IMG/VR virus record: IMGVR_UViG_3300011337_000071
Coordinates: 1-31,487 of that record
Length of the DNA stretch: 31,487 nt
From: a virus
Taxonomy: Duplodnaviria > Caudoviricetes
Strand: one strand, 5' to 3'
Shown here: one piece after another, positions 1,064 through 30,020 of the stretch
How the letters are laid out: each line of letters opens with the position of its first letter
How positions within the stretch are numbered: the first letter of the stretch is position 1
Notes under the pieces: model-generated
Database searches by the model: none
Told to the model about the DNA's origin: nothing
The model's input: the letters and a program-made list of their open reading frames with translations, nothing else
Made by a program: the position numbers and the translations under genes

Positions 1064-3259
1064 ATGGCTGATTACACGGGTATCAACAAGGTCGGTCAGG
1101 TTGCCAATGTTGGCGGCGGGCCTGGCGAGAAGGACGACCAGCGCGATATGCTGGCAACCATGCGCTCACGCCTGACTATGGCGGTGGATGCCTACAGCGA
1201 CTCGCGCAGCAACGAACTGGATGATTTGCGGTTCATGGCGGGTAGTCCGGACAATCAGTGGCAGTGGCCTGCTGACGTACTGGCGACTCGCGGGGCTGTG
1301 CAGGGTCAGACTATCAACGCCCGTCCCTGCCTGACCATCAACAAGCTGCCGCAGCACGTTCGCCAAGTCACCAACGATCAGCGCCACAACCGTCCCAGCG
1401 GTAAGGTCATCCCTGCGGATGAAATTGCCAACTCGGAAATGGCTGAGATCTTTAACGGCATTGTGCGGCATATTGAGTACATCAGTGACGCTGACACGGC
1501 TTACGACACCGCCTGCGAAAATCAGGTTACTTACGGTGAAGGCTACATCCGGGTACTGACTGAGTATTGCGACGAGAACAGCTTTGACCAAGATCTAAAG
1601 ATTGGCCGGGTTCGGAATTCGTTCTCGGTGTTCATGGATCCCGCTATCCAAGACCCATGCGGTGCGGATGCACGGTGGTGCTTTGTCACAGAGGATGTGC
1701 CAAAAGACGAGTACGAACGCCTGTACCCGGACGCTGCGCCGATTAGCAGCTTGCAGTCGCTTGGCATTGGCGACCAAGACTTGATGCAGTGGCTGCGGGA
1801 CGAGACGGTGCGGATTGCTGAGTATTTTTACGTGGAATACAAGCCCGAGACGCTAAACCTGTACCCCAACAACATCACGGCGTTCAACAACACGCCTGAT
1901 GACAAACAACTTAAAGCGCTTTACGGCAAACCGCTTAAGAACCGGGTTGTGCAGCGCCAAAAGGTTTGCTGGGTCAAAACCAACGGTTACGAGGTGCTAG
2001 AAAAGCGCGATTGGGCCGGTAAGTACATCCCCATTGTGCGCGTGGTGGGCAATGAGTTTGAGGTTGACGGGCAGATTTATGTCTCCGGTCTGGTGCGAAA
2101 TGCCAAAGACGCCCAGCGGATGTACAACTATTGGGTGAGCCAAGAGGCCGAGATGTTGGCCTTGGCGCCCAAAGCGCCGTTTATTGGTTACGGTGGGCAG
2201 TTTGAAGGGTACGAGACTCAGTGGAAGACTGCCAATACCACCAACTGGCCGTATCTGGAGGTCAATCCAGACGTTACAGACGGCGCAGGCGCTACTTTGC
2301 CACTACCCCAGCGTGCCCAGCCCCCAATGGCGTCCAGCGGCCTTTTGCAGGCCAAATCAGGGGCGTCTGAGGACATTAAAGCAGCTACAGGGCAGTACAA
2401 CGCTAGTCTGGGCATGGGCGGCAACGAGCGCAGCGGCAAGGCTATCTTAGCCCGTCAGCGAGAAGGTGACGTTGGCACTTACCACTATGTTGACAACCTG
2501 GCCCGTGCCATTCGCTACGTGACCCGGCAACTGGTGGACATGATCCCCAAAATCTACGACACCCAGCGGGTTGCGCGGATTATTGGTGAAGACGGTGAAA
2601 CCAACATGGCGCGGATCGACCCGTCGCAGCCCGAGCCGGTCAAGAAGATCGTTGACCAGCAGGGTATTGAGATTGAAAAGATTTACAACCCTAATGTCGG
2701 CAAGTACGATGTGGTGGTGACCACCGGCCCAAGCTACAGCACCAAGCGGGTGGAGACTCGGGAAGAAATGGCAAACCTGCTGCAAGGCAACCCGCAACTG
2801 TGGGCTGTGGCTGGTGACTTGTTTGTCAAGAACATGGATTGGCCTGGTGCTAGTGAGTTGGCTAAACGGCTGGCTAAGACCATTGATCCCAAACTTATGG
2901 GTGATGACAACGACCCAGCCCTGCAAGCAGCCAATATGCAGATGCAGGCTATGGGCCAAGAAATGCAGCAAATGCAAGAAATGCTGCAAAACGTCCAGCA
3001 GTCGATGGAAGCGCAAACTTTGGAAATTAAGCGGTTTGATTCTGAGGTCAAGGCATACGATGCCCAAACCAAGCGTATTTCAGCTACGTCGGATGCCATG
3101 ACACCAGAGCAGGTGCAAGAGGTGGTACTAGGTACAATTCACGGCATGATTACCAGCGGCGACCTAATCAACGAAATGCCTGGGCGTGACGTTGATATGC
3201 CGGGTATGGAAATGCCAATGGAAGGCATGGAACCACAACTACAGGAGATGCCGCAATGA
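1064..3259 (+). CDS. P22-like portal protein
   Basis: 731 aa, with RPCLTINKL, YIPIVRVVG, KDAQRMYNYW and SGKAILARQ motifs, a Q/M-rich C-terminal barrel coiled coil, and position after terL. Confidence 0.93.
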   Translation: MADYTGINKVGQVANVGGGPGEKDDQRDMLATMRSRLTMAVDAYSDSRSNELDDLRFMAGSPDNQWQWPADVLATRGAVQGQTINARPCLTINKLPQHVRQVTNDQRHNRPSGKVIPADEIANSEMAEIFNGIVRHIEYISDADTAYDTACENQVTYGEGYIRVLTEYCDENSFDQDLKIGRVRNSFSVFMDPAIQDPCGADARWCFVTEDVPKDEYERLYPDAAPISSLQSLGIGDQDLMQWLRDETVRIAEYFYVEYKPETLNLYPNNITAFNNTPDDKQLKALYGKPLKNRVVQRQKVCWVKTNGYEVLEKRDWAGKYIPIVRVVGNEFEVDGQIYVSGLVRNAKDAQRMYNYWVSQEAEMLALAPKAPFIGYGGQFEGYETQWKTANTTNWPYLEVNPDVTDGAGATLPLPQRAQPPMASSGLLQAKSGASEDIKAATGQYNASLGMGGNERSGKAILARQREGDVGTYHYVDNLARAIRYVTRQLVDMIPKIYDTQRVARIIGEDGETNMARIDPSQPEPVKKIVDQQGIEIEKIYNPNVGKYDVVVTTGPSYSTKRVETREEMANLLQGNPQLWAVAGDLFVKNMDWPGASELAKRLAKTIDPKLMGDDNDPALQAANMQMQAMGQEMQQMQEMLQNVQQSMEAQTLEIKRFDSEVKAYDAQTKRISATSDAMTPEQVQEVVLGTIHGMITSGDLINEMPGRDVDMPGMEMPMEGMEPQLQEMPQ

Positions 3260-3618
3260 AAGGTAACGAATTTGTAGGGATGCTGTTTCTGGCGCGGGAT
3301 GTAGCGCACAGCGTGCATCTAAATACCCGCAGCTTTAGCAAGCACATGGCGCTGAACACCTTCTACAACGAAATTGTAGAACTGGCCGACGCCTTTGCTG
3401 AAGCCTATCAAGGCAGGTACGGTCTAATGGGCCAGATCACGCTGGGCAGCAACAAGAAGACGGCCAACATCATTGAGTTCTTGCAAGACCAACTTGCTGA
3501 GATTGAAAAAGTACGCTATGAAGTGTGCGACAAATCTGACACATCGCTCCAGCAGTTGATTGACAATATTGTGGAACTGTACCTAACCACGCTCTACAAA
3601 TTGAGGTTCTTAGCATGA
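3256..3618 (+). CDS. Ferritin/Dps-like four-helix protein (DUF5856-like)
   Basis: HSVHLNTRSFSKHMALNTFY...ADAFAEAYQG and YKLRFL resemble the Dps-like H-x-H...H...D-xxx-E pattern. ATGA overlaps at both ends. Confidence 0.7.
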   Translation: MKGNEFVGMLFLARDVAHSVHLNTRSFSKHMALNTFYNEIVELADAFAEAYQGRYGLMGQITLGSNKKTANIIEFLQDQLAEIEKVRYEVCDKSDTSLQQLIDNIVELYLTTLYKLRFLA

Positions 3619-9528: not shown

Positions 9529-10242
9529 ATGACCACATCTGCTGGCGACCAGATTAACGGGGCTATGCGCCTGATTGGGATGCTGGCAGAGGGTGAGACA
9601 CCTTCAGCGGCAGCGTCCCAGGATGCGCTGTCGGCGCTCAACCAGATGATTGACTCATGGAACACTGAGCGGTTGTCGGTGTTCAGCACACAGGATCAAA
9701 TCTTCACTTGGCCTGCAAGTACCCAAAGCCGCACGCTTGGCCCAACGGGTAATTTTGTTGGCAACAGGCCAATCTTGCTTGATGACTCAACCTACTTTAG
9801 GGATGCAGCCACCAACGTAAGCTACGGCATCAAGATGATCAATCAGCAGCAGTACAACGGTATTGCTGTTAAGACGGTAACCAGCACTTATCCACAAGTG
9901 CTGTGGATCAACATGACGTACCCCGACATTGAAATGTACGTCTATCCAGTGCCGTTGCGTCCGCTGGAATGGCATTTTGTTTCGGTTGAGGAACTTACCC
10001 AACCAGCAACGCTGGCTACTACGCTGTCGTTCCCACCGGGCTACCTGAGAGCCTTTAGGTTCAATTTGGCTTGTGAGATTGCTGCTGAGTTTGGCGTCGA
10101 GCCAAGCCCCCAAGTCTCACGCATTGCCATGACCAGCAAGCGCAACCTCAAGCGCATCAACAATCCGAATGATGTAATGGCAATGCCATATGGCATCGTG
10201 GCAAATCGCCAAAGATATAATATTTATAGTGGCAACTTCTAA
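9529..10242 (+). CDS. Head-to-tail adaptor (P22 gp4-like)
   Basis: TSAGDQINGAMRLIGML..GE..DALSALNQMIDSW; PPGYLRAFRFNLACEIAAEFG; position in the module. Confidence 0.75.
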   Translation: MTTSAGDQINGAMRLIGMLAEGETPSAAASQDALSALNQMIDSWNTERLSVFSTQDQIFTWPASTQSRTLGPTGNFVGNRPILLDDSTYFRDAATNVSYGIKMINQQQYNGIAVKTVTSTYPQVLWINMTYPDIEMYVYPVPLRPLEWHFVSVEELTQPATLATTLSFPPGYLRAFRFNLACEIAAEFGVEPSPQVSRIAMTSKRNLKRINNPNDVMAMPYGIVANRQRYNIYSGNF

Positions 10243-10253
10243 GTATGTTTAAC

Positions 10254-10787
10254 TTAGCGGTTATCAAATCTACCAAAAGGGCCGCTACGTTGGCCTTTGG
10301 GAAGATGCGTTCGTTCTTGCCGATAAATATTATGCGCGTGTTGAATATTTTGTTGATGTGTAAGCAGTTCCAAATTGTCAAGGCAGTTATTGACTCGGTT
10401 AAGGTCTTTATGGTTTATTTCCAATCGACCTTCAATAGGACCAACAAAGGCTTCCCACAAAGCTCTGTGAACCCCAACTTTGGTGTATTTGCCATTTTTA
10501 CACGCAGCAAAACGCAAATAGTGATCGGAACCAGCAGAAGTTTTAACTTTTCTGTACGCAGCATCGCCTTTCCAAGTTTTTCCATTTTTAATCATGCTGG
10601 CAGTGGCGTTGCTAGTGCCAAGAAATTCTGCAACTTCGCGAAGAAACGCGCCGTTTTCAAACATTTGTTTTGCAGCGGGAATTTTTGCGGCGTCAAGTTT
10701 TTTAGCCCTACCAACACGACGCACGTTGGCAAGATTACTAATTTCGTAAAGATTTTCGTAGCCAAAAACAGGCTTCCATATTTCCAT
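10254..10787 (-). mobile_element. Free-standing NUMOD4-HNH homing endonuclease, antisense to the late operon
   Basis: MEIWKPVFGYENLYEISNLANVR (NUMOD4) and VHRALWEAF...INHKDLNRVNNCLDNLE (HNH_3). AT-rich, with its own GAGGT SD. Confidence 0.88.
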
Positions 10788-10814
10788 ACTGTACCTCTAG
10801 TTAAGTTAAATAGG

Positions 10815-10823
10815 AGTATAGCA
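10815..10823 (-). promoter_or_regulatory. Putative extended -10 promoter for the HNH gene
   Basis: Minus strand TGcTATACT, about 27 nt upstream of the HNH ATG. Confidence 0.45.
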
Positions 10824-10825
10824 TA

Positions 10826-12268
10826 ATGCACACGCCAATTTTGGGCAGCGCCTATGTTGCGCGTAGCGTCAACGCTGCAAACAACAGAATGGTCAACCTT
10901 TTCCCTGAAGCTATTCCTGCGGGTGGCTTAGAGGCTGGGTTTCTGAACCGTGCGCCAGGGCTGGAGTTTTTGCAGACCGTAGGCACCGGCCCTATTCGGG
11001 CGCTGTGGGCGCACCAGACTAATGGCAGTGACTTCTATGTGGTATCAGGCCAAGAGGTCTACAAGCTGACCGGCCTGACGGCCACACCGACTTTGCTTGG
11101 CACGGTGTCAGGTAGCGGCCCGGTATCCATTGCGGACAACGGCACTCAGATCTTCTTTGCTTGCAACCCCGACGGCTACATCTACAACGAAACCACCAAC
11201 GTATTCGCGCAGATCACAGACCCAGATTTTGCTGGCGCTGTGACGGTGGCCTACCTTGACGGCTACTTTGTTTTTAACCAGCCCGACAGTCAAATTATCT
11301 GGGTGTCGCAATTGCTAGATGGCACATCCGTTGACCCACTGGACTTTGCCTCGGCTGAAGGCTCTCCAGACGGTGTGGTGGGTCTTATTGCTGACCACCG
11401 GCAACTGTGGGTGTTTGGTACTGACTCCGTAGAGGTTTGGTACAACGCAGGCGCTGTAGATTTCCCTTTGGAGCGCATCCAAGGGGCGTTCAATGAGATT
11501 GGTTGCGCGTCTGCATACTCCATAGCCAAACTGGACAACGGCTTGTTCTGGCTGGGTACAGACGCCCGTGGGCAAGGCATTGTCTACCGCGCCAACGGCT
11601 ACACCGGGGCTCGCGTCTCCACTCACGCCGTTGAGTACGCCATTGCCCAATACGGCAACATTTCGGACGCTATTGCGTACACGTACCAGCAAGAGGGCCA
11701 CGCTTTCTATGTGCTGACATTCCCATCAGGCAACGCCACATGGGTCTACGATGTGGCTACAGAGGCCTGGCACGAACGCGCCGGGTTTGATGATGGTCAG
11801 TTTATGCGGCACCGCAGCAATTGCCAATGCAATTTTGGTGGAAACATCATTGTTGGCGACTTTGAGAACGGCAACATTTACAAATTTGACCTAGACGTTT
11901 ATGCTGACAACGGCGGGGTTCAAAAGTGGTTGCGTTCGTGGAGGGCGCTGCCACCAGGGCAAAACAATTTCAAGCGCACGGCCCACCATACCTTGCAACT
12001 CAATGCTGAGACAGGCGTGGGGCTGAACACCGGCCAAGGCTCTGACCCGCAATGTATGTTGCGGTGGAGCGATGATGGCGGTCACACTTGGTCAAACGAA
12101 CATTGGGCCAGCATGGGCCAGATTGGTCAATATGGCTACCGCACGTTTTGGCGTCGGCTGGGCATGACGCTCAAGCTGCGTGACCGAGTGTATGAGGTCA
12201 GTGGTACTGACCCGGTAAAAGTTAGCATCACAGGCGCTGAGTTGTTGATAAGTCCGACAAAGGCTTGA
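10826..12268 (+). CDS. Tail hub / DNA stabilization protein (P22 gp10 family)
   Basis: 480 aa, VSIADNG, YLDGYFVF, FASAEGSPD, WHER, LRWSDDGGHTWSNE and WRRLG..RDRV motifs. Confidence 0.9.
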   Translation: MHTPILGSAYVARSVNAANNRMVNLFPEAIPAGGLEAGFLNRAPGLEFLQTVGTGPIRALWAHQTNGSDFYVVSGQEVYKLTGLTATPTLLGTVSGSGPVSIADNGTQIFFACNPDGYIYNETTNVFAQITDPDFAGAVTVAYLDGYFVFNQPDSQIIWVSQLLDGTSVDPLDFASAEGSPDGVVGLIADHRQLWVFGTDSVEVWYNAGAVDFPLERIQGAFNEIGCASAYSIAKLDNGLFWLGTDARGQGIVYRANGYTGARVSTHAVEYAIAQYGNISDAIAYTYQQEGHAFYVLTFPSGNATWVYDVATEAWHERAGFDDGQFMRHRSNCQCNFGGNIIVGDFENGNIYKFDLDVYADNGGVQKWLRSWRALPPGQNNFKRTAHHTLQLNAETGVGLNTGQGSDPQCMLRWSDDGGHTWSNEHWASMGQIGQYGYRTFWRRLGMTLKLRDRVYEVSGTDPVKVSITGAELLISPTKA

Positions 12269-28251: not shown

Positions 28252-29265
28252 ATGATCATACCTGAACCAGAAATTACTATCACCAGCCTGATCGACCAAG
28301 CGCATCAGTCTCGCACTGAAAAGCCCCGCGCTCACATGGGCTGTAGCACCTTGGGCCACCACTGCGAACGCTGGCTCTGGCTAAGTTTCCGCTGGGCAGT
28401 GGTTGAGAAGTTCCAAGGCCGAATTCTGCGACTGTTTCGCCGTGGGCAGAATGAAGAGGCCACCATCATCAGTGACCTGAGAGCCATTGGCATGAGCGTA
28501 TCAGGAACCCAGCGCCGAGTGAATTTTGGCAGTCACGTATCAGGAAGCCTGGACGGTATCGGCAAGGGCGTACCCGGTGCGCCTAAGACTGAACACGTTC
28601 TGGAGTTCAAAACCCATTCGCTGAAGTCATTCAACGACCTTGAGAAGAATGGAGTGGCAAAGAGTAAGCCCCAGCATTTCACCCAGTGCCAAGTGTATAT
28701 GCACGGCACCGACCTGAAACGCGCACTGTACGTGGCCGTCTGCAAAGACGATGACCGCATCTACACCGAGCGCTTGGAACTTGACCGCGACCATGCTATC
28801 AAGGCAATTGAGAAAGGCCAGCGTCTTGCGCTGACCGACCGCCTGCCACCGCCCATCAGCACTGACCCAACATGGTTTGAGTGCAAGATGTGCCCCGGCC
28901 ATGACTTCTGCCACGGCAGCAATACCACCAAACAGGTCAACTGCCGAACCTGCGCTCACACTACGCCATTGAGTGATAGCACTTGGCACTGCGCCAAGTG
29001 GGATGATGTTGTACCTACTGATGCCCAGCATGACGGCTGCGAGGCCCATGTGATTCATCCTGACTTGGTGCCGTGGAAGCGGCTGGAAGGCCCATCAGAT
29101 TGGGTAGCAGTCTATGAGATTGACGGCCATGCGATAGCCAACGGTGAGCCTGGCGAGGGCGTGTATGGCTCCAAGGAATTGCTGGCTAATGCCGCCGCTT
29201 GCATTGCCGAGGATCCGCAGCTTATGCAATTGCGGAAGGAATGGAATGGGAGGATTGTGGGATGA
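28252..29265 (+). CDS. Cas4-like PD-(D/E)XK exonuclease with Cys clusters
   Basis: HCERWLW, GSLDG, LEFKT, QCQVYM, CKMC..FC and CRTC motifs. Confidence 0.85.
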   Translation: MIIPEPEITITSLIDQAHQSRTEKPRAHMGCSTLGHHCERWLWLSFRWAVVEKFQGRILRLFRRGQNEEATIISDLRAIGMSVSGTQRRVNFGSHVSGSLDGIGKGVPGAPKTEHVLEFKTHSLKSFNDLEKNGVAKSKPQHFTQCQVYMHGTDLKRALYVAVCKDDDRIYTERLELDRDHAIKAIEKGQRLALTDRLPPPISTDPTWFECKMCPGHDFCHGSNTTKQVNCRTCAHTTPLSDSTWHCAKWDDVVPTDAQHDGCEAHVIHPDLVPWKRLEGPSDWVAVYEIDGHAIANGEPGEGVYGSKELLANAAACIAEDPQLMQLRKEWNGRIVG

Positions 29266-30020
29266 GTGAATCATCAAGCCTTGAAATAACGTACAATCAA
29301 AACATGAAAACATATTACGTTTACCTTCACACGCGCAATGACACTGGCGAAGTTTTTTACGTTGGCAAAGGTCAAGGTAGACGCGCTTGGTGGAAAAACG
29401 GACGAAATAAACATTGGCATTTTTTGTCTCAGAAGCATGGCTACGAAGTGCATATTTGGCGCAATGAATTAACTGAAGCGCAAGCATTTGAAATTGAAAA
29501 AGAACGTATTTCTTTTTACGGAAGAAAAAATTTGTGCAATTACACCGATGGTGGAGATGGAGCTTCTGGAGCAAAAAAAACAGAAGCTCAAAAATTGCAT
29601 ATGAAAGAAAAAATGCTTGGACGCAAATTTAGCGAACAAACTTTACAAAAAATGAAAATTGCAGCCAGTCAAAGATCAAATGAAACAAGACAAAAACAAA
29701 CTGATGCAATACGTGGAAGAAAACACAGCGAAGAACACAAACAAAAAATATCTGCGACAGGAATTGGTAGAACGCCAACAGAAGCAACTAGAAAAAAAAT
29801 ATCAGATGCTCATAAAGGCAAACCAAAATCGGCAGAAGCTGTAAAAAAAATGGCGAAATCAAAATCAAAACAAGTGATGTGTTTAACAAATAACACAATT
29901 TATGAATCACAAAGAGAGGCAGCGCGTCAATTAAATTTGAAAAGCTCACACATTAGCGCCGTAGTCAACGGAAAAGCGCATCAAACCAAAGGGTTTGTTT
30001 TTGCATTGGTGCAATTATGA
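29262..30020 (+). mobile_element. Free-standing GIY-YIG homing endonuclease with NUMOD3 repeats and a C-terminal NUMOD1-like HTH
   Basis: YYVYLH...FYVGKG..RA, GRKHSEEHKQKIS repeats, YESQREAARQL; very AT-rich. Start at 29262 (ATGA overlap) or 29304. Confidence 0.85.

Follow-up and report, generated by a model that had tools for sequence, protein, structure and literature searches.

How might a mobile gene come to lie backwards, at little cost, between two translationally coupled virion genes? The question is raised by the 31,487-nucleotide (nt) stretch of viral DNA analyzed here (positions 1 to 31,487 of IMG/VR virus record IMGVR_UViG_3300011337_000071), referred to as the window. Between its gp4-like and gp10-like genes lies an antisense gene for a predicted HNH homing endonuclease. 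The late strand opposite is read by an open reading frame (ORF) without internal stops, designated the “bridge”, which shares its triplets with the HNH gene. The bridge ATG (10245) is 2 nt past the gp4-like stop, and the bridge TAA (10824–10826) overlaps the gp10-like start. The positions that an initial annotation had given for the gp4 stop, the bridge and this TAATG overlap were all reproduced from the sequence.

The explanation that we favor, and consider probable on the sequences compared below, is that a mobile HNH gene was inserted backwards in the gp4/gp10 junction and that its antisense frame would act as a ribosome relay, restoring gp4-gp10 coupling. Ribosomes ending gp4 would restart on the bridge ATG, the gp4-like TAA (10240–10242) being the presumed hand-over point. 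The restarted ribosomes would cross the insert, making a dispensable product, and would then terminate at the gp10 start and reinitiate, much as ribosomes leaving gp4 would do in a single step in an allele without the insert. As a secondary effect, ribosome cover may shield the late mRNA against Rho and the antisense HNH transcript. Overlaps of the form ATGA or TGATG are described in PMC6728339 as a known mark of termination-reinitiation. We infer coupling at this junction from the conserved frame and its conserved ends, and translation of the bridge is putative. Two RNA runs contained 5% of the sequence words, came from mixed relatives, carried no strand information and showed no joint across the insert.

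Openness of the late strand

Any TTA, CTA or TCA codon in the HNH gene would place a stop in the bridge frame. None occurs among the 14 leucine and 6 serine codons of the window gene, an absence with P = 0.026 when the codon usage of the window is taken as the expectation. All three codons are likewise missing from two further window genes (124 and 88 codons), and the portal, capsid and primase genes contain runs of 210, 185 and 168 codons without them. The initial annotation had cautioned that in-register antisense ORFs can arise by chance. That caution stands for the single genome and fails once homologs are compared; the case beyond chance is therefore made by the comparison with relatives, not by the window genome alone.

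HNH relatives were fetched from viral and metagenome contigs, together with gp4 loci. The 210 loci with an HNH match gave 107 distinct full-length clade members, partial and duplicate sequences being left out, and these were reduced to 77 representatives at <90% nucleotide identity, spanning 52–100% identity. All 77 run opposite to gp4 or gp10; gp4 shares the contig in 74 cases, and the other 3 have gp10 alone. The in-register late-strand frame is free of stops in 74 of the 77, compared with 429 and 977 stops counted in the other two frames of that strand. CTA was found in 0 of 647 CTN codons, TCA in 0 of 170 TCN codons and TTA in 3 of 473 TTR codons; the codon usage of the flanking genes would predict roughly 175–210 codons of these three types (hand arithmetic).

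The gp4 and gp10 genes of the same loci were used as controls. There, 9–12% of leucine codons and 12–13% of serine codons are of the TTA/CTA/TCA type, and the in-register antisense frame, taken over at most 177 codons, is open in 2 of 62 gp4 and 5 of 52 gp10 loci. A-ending codons are otherwise common in the HNH genes (17% of four-fold sites). Two copies fetched later from metagenome-assembled genomes labelled Rubrivivax and beta proteobacterium were both open and coupled. Judged by these codon counts, the openness of the bridge frame is selected.

Bridge start, bridge end and gp10 start

In alleles without an insert, the gp4 stop shares 1 nt with the gp10 start at 36 of the 42 distinct junctions, and at the others the two are 0–5 nt apart; the deposited phage DSL-LC05 carries such an empty allele. 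With the insert in place, 73 of the 74 representatives with gp4 have the bridge ATG between −1 and +33 nt from the gp4 stop, and the remaining one has GTG at the equivalent place. Where the bridge ATG falls inside the HNH gene it corresponds to a histidine codon, and two such columns are CAT in 41/42 and 25/25 sequences; histidine columns of the catalytic region are mixed by contrast (42/77, 31/77 and 17/77). Most bridge starts have no Shine-Dalgarno (SD) sequence (median anti-SD pairing −0.8 kcal/mol). On this pattern of codon choice, the bridge start codon is selected.

At the other end, the spacer between the HNH start and the gp10 start varies in length (35, 38, 41, 56 and 59 nt) and is 2 mod 3 in 59 of 62 alleles, which keeps the bridge stop on the gp10 start. 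These spacers hold 1 stop in the bridge frame versus 78 and 104 in the other two. They also house the predicted extended −10 element of the HNH gene (39/62) and the SD sites of both genes. Both ends of the bridge thus have the overlapping or close stop and start of a coupled gene pair.

An apparent non-canonical gp10 start, ATA or ATC, was found in 13 of 105 endonuclease-adjacent alleles and in none of 41 empty or 63 other-insert alleles; one of the 13 has an ATG six codons further up. The start is ATA in L027, L031, L039, L210, L224, L234, L242, L258, L359 and L364–L366, and ATC in L098 (L numbers designate loci). It sits behind a GGAG site and is overlapped by the bridge TAA. At L055, L060 and L070 there is no HNH gene, only 27 nt separate gp4 from gp10, and the 5′ junction of the HNH allele is retained; a 9-codon mini-ORF ends on the ATT start of gp10. 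From these junction sequences, the three loci are likely deletion remnants that keep a minimal bridge.

Other endonuclease lineages at the junction

The gp4/gp10 junction also houses other antisense endonucleases. Members of an HNH-AP2 family, which resembles the window HNH only in a 45-residue HNH core, are open in 20 of the 21 distinct genes found there, and in the single exception the stop sits upstream of the bridge start. Away from the junction, the frame is open in 3 of 52 HNH-AP2 genes (2 of 35 when GC-matched), and it is open in 0 of 13 sense copies near the terminase and portal genes of related phages. A third lineage (208 amino acids, NUMOD4, helix-turn-helix and HNH) is open at the junction in 6 of 6 genes, a comparison that should be considered weak because its 17 controls are distant and AT-richer. 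Antisense homologs at the junction are therefore open, and sense or displaced copies closed, as the initial annotation had anticipated in proposing this comparison.

The ends of the HNH-AP2 bridges are placed in the same way: 12 of 21 have an ATG that shares bases with the gp4 stop, and of the 17 for which gp10 is directly next and located, 15 end in a stop that overlaps its start. The third lineage aligns with the window HNH family over 152 columns, and the two may have a common origin. HNH-AP2 members at the junction form two clades in a FastTree phylogeny, which suggested two separate origins for them; this was not established, since a single clade is not rejected (approximately unbiased test, p = 0.19). 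At least two origins of the bridge at this junction are secure on the sequences compared.

Further arrangements were noted at and away from the junction. At L366, an extra ~250 nt opening with a sense ATG lies between gp4 and a third-lineage bridge, which begins after it. Sense inserts of 176–570 amino acids with related N-termini also recur at this hotspot (L049–L054, L057, L059, L072, L081, L095, L105 and others), each starting −1 to +13 nt from the gp4 stop; L082 and L085 carry an 82-amino acid sense insert there. Outside the junction, HNH-AP2 genes at L342, L345 and L357 have an open in-register reverse frame, possibly by chance because their neighbours look same-strand. Another antisense HNH-AP2 gene (L296:1990–2316, minus strand) follows a large gene of another phage and has two in-register stops; a 108-codon in-register ORF there has a stop that overlaps the next gene's start and is possibly a partial bridge.

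The endonuclease and its mobility

The window HNH gene has a GC content of 0.43, compared with about 0.5–0.55 in most neighbours. Its predicted product has the HNH domain and DNA-binding modules of a free-standing HNH homing endonuclease, and its profile matches PDB 1u3e, an HNH homing endonuclease (1e-12). Homologs retrieved for it number 273, and H107, H126, N134, N138, H144 and N147 are invariant across 68 of them. With I-HmuI it shares NUMOD4 and the HNH core; it differs in being free-standing and antisense, in an inserted segment resembling a helix-turn-helix, and in having Asn before the first His where the aligned 1u3e chain has Asp. No close relative was found in isolated phages (best about 33–36%).

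The insert occupies a fixed site, being carried by 78 of 205 gp4 sequences, with 46 of the 205 empty. Its presence is scattered on the gp4 tree: 48 Fitch changes are required over the 205 tips, versus 62.5 with shuffled labels. The HNH gene is thus distributed as a mobile element would be, and cleavage and homing are presumed from sequence. The fourth-last gp4 codon (the last gp4 codons occupy window positions 10228–10239) begins with G in 40 of 41 empty alleles versus 57 of 96 endonuclease alleles. This difference could mark a putative cleavage site near the gp4 end, and is confounded by ancestry. An endonuclease encoded in an intron or intein was also considered and rejected: neither gp4 nor gp10 is interrupted, the insert lies between them, and nearly all of its 583 nt are endonuclease gene (Rfam was not searched).

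The HNH gene is probably expressed from a promoter on the minus strand and a ribosome-binding site, both belonging to it. Ahead of the HNH start, anti-SD pairing has a median of −6.6 kcal/mol in 62 homologs, and the motif TGnTAYA[CA]T is present on the endonuclease gene strand in 39 of them. A −35/−10 promoter scan did not recover the window HNH promoter and returned only an unrelated site.

Points that weigh against the relay

Several observations count against a ribosome relay. The homologs share ancestry, and therefore the counts are not independent. About half of the bridge starts are separated from the gp4 stop by 11–33 nt, a loose spacing for reinitiation. Stop identity alone provides no evidence, because a start of the form ATG-A itself spells TGA; the spacer register does. 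Where a sense gene follows the HNH gene, the bridge can end 16–27 nt short of its ATG. Anti-SD pairing for gp10 has a median of −6.8 in 62 insertion alleles versus −3.8 in 42 empty alleles; the insert thus gives gp10 a stronger SD sequence, and gp10 could start unaided. Mean folding energy of the gp10 start region is −14.7 with the insert and −14.4 without, and therefore gives no sign that ribosomes are needed for melting.

Nor is the bridge universal among antisense homing endonucleases. The antisense HNH-AP2 gene at L324, flanked in another phage by two genes on the opposite strand, has 4 in-register stops. T4 segD, a free-standing endonuclease gene lying backwards between capsid genes 23 and 24 (PMC2988022), has 9 such stops on the late strand, where none of the three frames is open. 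Due to these two cases, the bridge should not be taken as a general rule.

Ribosome cover as an alternative

Rho polarity acts on untranslated RNA, which here would amount to about 580 nt. Translation of the bridge might serve as cover against Rho, the antisense HNH transcript and ribonucleases, with gp10 starting from its own SD site. We judge this unlikely in place of a relay; it is the main rival and may act alongside one. The same openness and start selection would be expected, and insertion alleles do have a strong gp10 SD sequence; the AGGAG site that the initial annotation raised as a caveat is present at 10812–10816. The conserved minus-strand promoter motif predicts an antisense transcript, and some bridges do end short of the next gene. 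The exact 3′ register, however, favors coupling, because a stop in the last 35–59 nt leaves little bare RNA; cover would not need a stop-free spacer ending precisely on the gp10 start. Coupling is also favored because the late strand of the insert is without Rho-like composition (C/G 1.17 versus 1.12 in gp4; YC 0.124 versus 0.124, no marked excess).

The initial annotation had proposed a non-polar insertion that keeps translational coupling and avoids Rho polarity. The first part agrees with the selected openness and the two selected ends. Rho avoidance found no positive support: there is no C-over-G excess on the late strand, and the exact overlap with the gp10 start is not required by it.

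Coding content of the bridge

Selection on the bridge as a protein is a second alternative. Under it, the frame would encode a functional overprinted protein, basic and hydrophobic, whose composition matters and not its sequence (an endonuclease inhibitor, or a binder of nucleic acid or membranes). In a double-synonym test, HNH-silent changes that alter the bridge were compared with changes silent in both frames, using non-overlapping pairs. Ratios were about 1 (0.89–1.05 for 37 and 51 pairs), versus 0.80–1.05 in gp4/gp10 controls. Bridge identity among distant pairs is near the shuffled level (34% versus 31% after synonymous shuffling), and gp4 and gp10 show a like excess. Between the window and L003 there are 5 HNH residue differences and 26 bridge residue differences.

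Truncation also appears to be tolerated. Six clade sequences have one internal bridge stop, and in the 5 full-length examples examined an in-frame GTG or ATG follows 3–6 nt later. Unrelated endonucleases yield unrelated bridge sequences at the same place. The bridge belongs to no Pfam or PHROG family, its best Atlas match (0.84) has low recognition, and AlphaFold gave no confident fold from a 70-sequence alignment (mean pLDDT 58, pTM 0.24). By these measures the bridge amino acid sequence is unconstrained, and the purifying selection expected of an antisense overlapping protein gene was not found. The suggestion of a nascent overprinted gene, also made in the initial annotation, is thus not supported.

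Composition provides what favors a protein. The bridge products would be strongly basic (mean net charge +19, pI 10.8; 69 sequences), bridge-frame glutamate codons are scarce in all three lineages (0.2–0.5% of residues versus 1.8% in controls), and the glutamate and cysteine terms persist under a dinucleotide model. Against this, the glutamate term is negative in flanking genes also (−1.08), and GAG is infrequent whichever of the three late-strand frames is read. Glutamate in the bridge frame corresponds to TTC and CTC in the HNH gene, and sense copies likewise prefer TTT (38/44). Protein-level selection against glutamate, strong at first, shrank when compared with flanking genes and sense copies and was set aside; the scarcity of glutamate and cysteine comes partly from host codon usage and a frame-free avoidance of GAG. 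Acidic nascent chains have been described as able to destabilise ribosomes, and by analogy the glutamate scarcity would fit a relay. An overprinted protein is, on the whole, quite improbable.

Extension of gp4 and codon bias

The open frame might also represent an extension of gp4, reached by stop readthrough or a −1 frameshift to give a gp4-bridge fusion. About 30% of representatives have the bridge in the gp4 frame and the others have it in the −1 frame; the open stretch often reaches back to the gp4 stop or upstream of it. This variation in frame nevertheless argues against a fusion, as do the variable gp4 stop (TAA, TAG or TGA), a second stop right after it in some alleles, the selection of a separate ATG, and the lack of a conserved slippery site (judged by eye). 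We regard such a fusion as very improbable.

That openness is a functionless by-product of host or gene codon bias is scarcely credible: the P value for the window gene alone and the long in-register open runs of other window genes would allow it, but the relatives already contradict it in sequence, since gp4 and gp10 use TTA, CTA and TCA, other A-ending codons are free in the HNH genes, same-family controls are closed, and codon bias accounts for neither the spacer register nor the start codon.

Comparison with known systems

The seg and mob genes of T4 are, like the window HNH gene, intergenic and intron-free endonuclease genes. T4 mobE is coupled to nrdA by UAAUGA (PMC2988022). Coupling is described in that source as expressing the endonuclease; here it would carry ribosomes across one.

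Ambigrammatic narnaviruses have a codon-aligned reverse ORF over the RNA-dependent RNA polymerase (RdRp) gene that is open without protein conservation, and translation itself, as well as RNA protection, has been proposed to matter (PMC8316113, PMC8155312). The window bridge is likewise a codon-aligned reverse frame kept open by avoidance of TTA, CTA and TCA, with its protein unconstrained, and the same double-synonym logic had the same outcome in both. Narnaviruses, however, are RNA viruses of eukaryotes in which the ORF runs the whole RdRp segment, whereas the bridge lies in an insert of a P22-like double-stranded DNA phage. Unlike the narnavirus ORF, the bridge is anchored within an operon, to the stop of one neighbour and the start of the other.

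In the T4 gene 60/MobA cassette, the host gene of an HNH mobile element is spared by a translational device that the element brings along (bioRxiv 10.1101/2022.08.31.505936). The gap that ribosomes hop within gene 60 is 50 nt long; here they would decode ~580 nt of endonuclease antisense between two genes. The window insert interrupts no gene and is itself an open frame, complete with start and stop codons. The bridge is therefore like narnaviruses in sequence logic and like the gene 60 cassette in purpose, and is a member of neither group. Translation of an ORF is also said to control transcription termination in phage P4 eta/kil, where the immunity genes are nested on the same strand, unlike the antisense insert of the window.

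The olg pairs of Pseudomonas aeruginosa also have a long antisense ORF embedded in another gene; they are reported in PMC8850804 to be under purifying selection as proteins, which the window bridge is not. No description of the present design was found in the literature, in a search that excluded supplements and for which subscription journals were mostly outside scope.

Genome setting

Pfam and PHROG matches identify the window as most of a P22-like podophage genome, with terminase, portal, scaffold, coat, gp4-like adaptor, gp10-like head closure, ejection, lysis and replication genes. Phage DSL-LC05 has a counterpart of the gp4-like gene at the same position, annotated “tail adaptor”; relatives that have been cultured or deposited include this phage and Rhodoferax phage P26218. 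Coordinates are collected in Table 1.

Table 1. Positions of junction features and of a second endonuclease gene in the window.
Feature	Coordinates	Strand	Basis
gp4-like head-tail adaptor	9529..10242	+	phrog_12985 6.1e-45; phrog_637 head-tail adaptor Ad3 2.6e-08
Bridge ORF, 193 stop-free codons	10245..10826	+	sequence; same triplets as HNH gene
NUMOD4-(HTH)-HNH endonuclease gene, I-HmuI-like, 177 amino acids (HTH, helix-turn-helix)	10254..10787	-	Pfam HNH_3 5e-14, NUMOD4 2e-07
SD-like GAGGT, 5 nt ahead of HNH start	10793..10797	-	sequence
AGGAG SD site of gp10, contributed by insert	10812..10816	+	sequence
Predicted extended −10 promoter TGcTATACT for HNH gene	10815..10823	-	sequence; overlaps gp10 ribosome-binding region
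TAATG, bridge stop overlapping gp10 start (ATG 10826–10828)	10824..10828	+	sequence
gp10-like head-closure / packaged-DNA stabilisation gene	10826..12268	+	Pfam Phage_stabilise 1e-07; phrog_578 head closure Hc3 8e-138
Sense endonuclease gene between exonuclease and helicase	29199..30020	+	Pfam NUMOD3 and I-HmuI NUMOD-like domains

The sense endonuclease gene listed last has 13 in-register antisense stops (5 TTA and 8 TCA). Repeated use of these codons had been pointed out in the initial annotation and holds; the GIY-YIG label given to the gene there came from a motif recognized by eye. Its stop overlaps the helicase start. Elsewhere in the window (3256–3618, plus strand), a DUF5856/phrog_858 gene (“starvation-inducible transcriptional regulator”) overlaps the portal stop and the next gene's start.

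Significance

On balance, the sequences suggest that antisense recoding is a further way for homing endonuclease genes to enter essential operons besides splicing and bypass, that it arose at least twice here, and that some gp10 alleles have moved to an AUA start under the bridge stop. If so, a gp10 with an AUA start would make the phage depend on the antisense frame of its parasite. A relay would explain how a backwards selfish gene can be of low cost in a tightly coupled, essential virion operon, and would provide, in a DNA phage, a case of an ORF under selection for its translation rather than for what it encodes. Natural controls of a kind seldom available are offered by the empty alleles, the same-family sense copies, the stop-restart variants and the likely deletion remnants. 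A long antisense ORF should not be taken for a protein gene on the strength of its conservation, and open frames of this kind are raw material for new genes.

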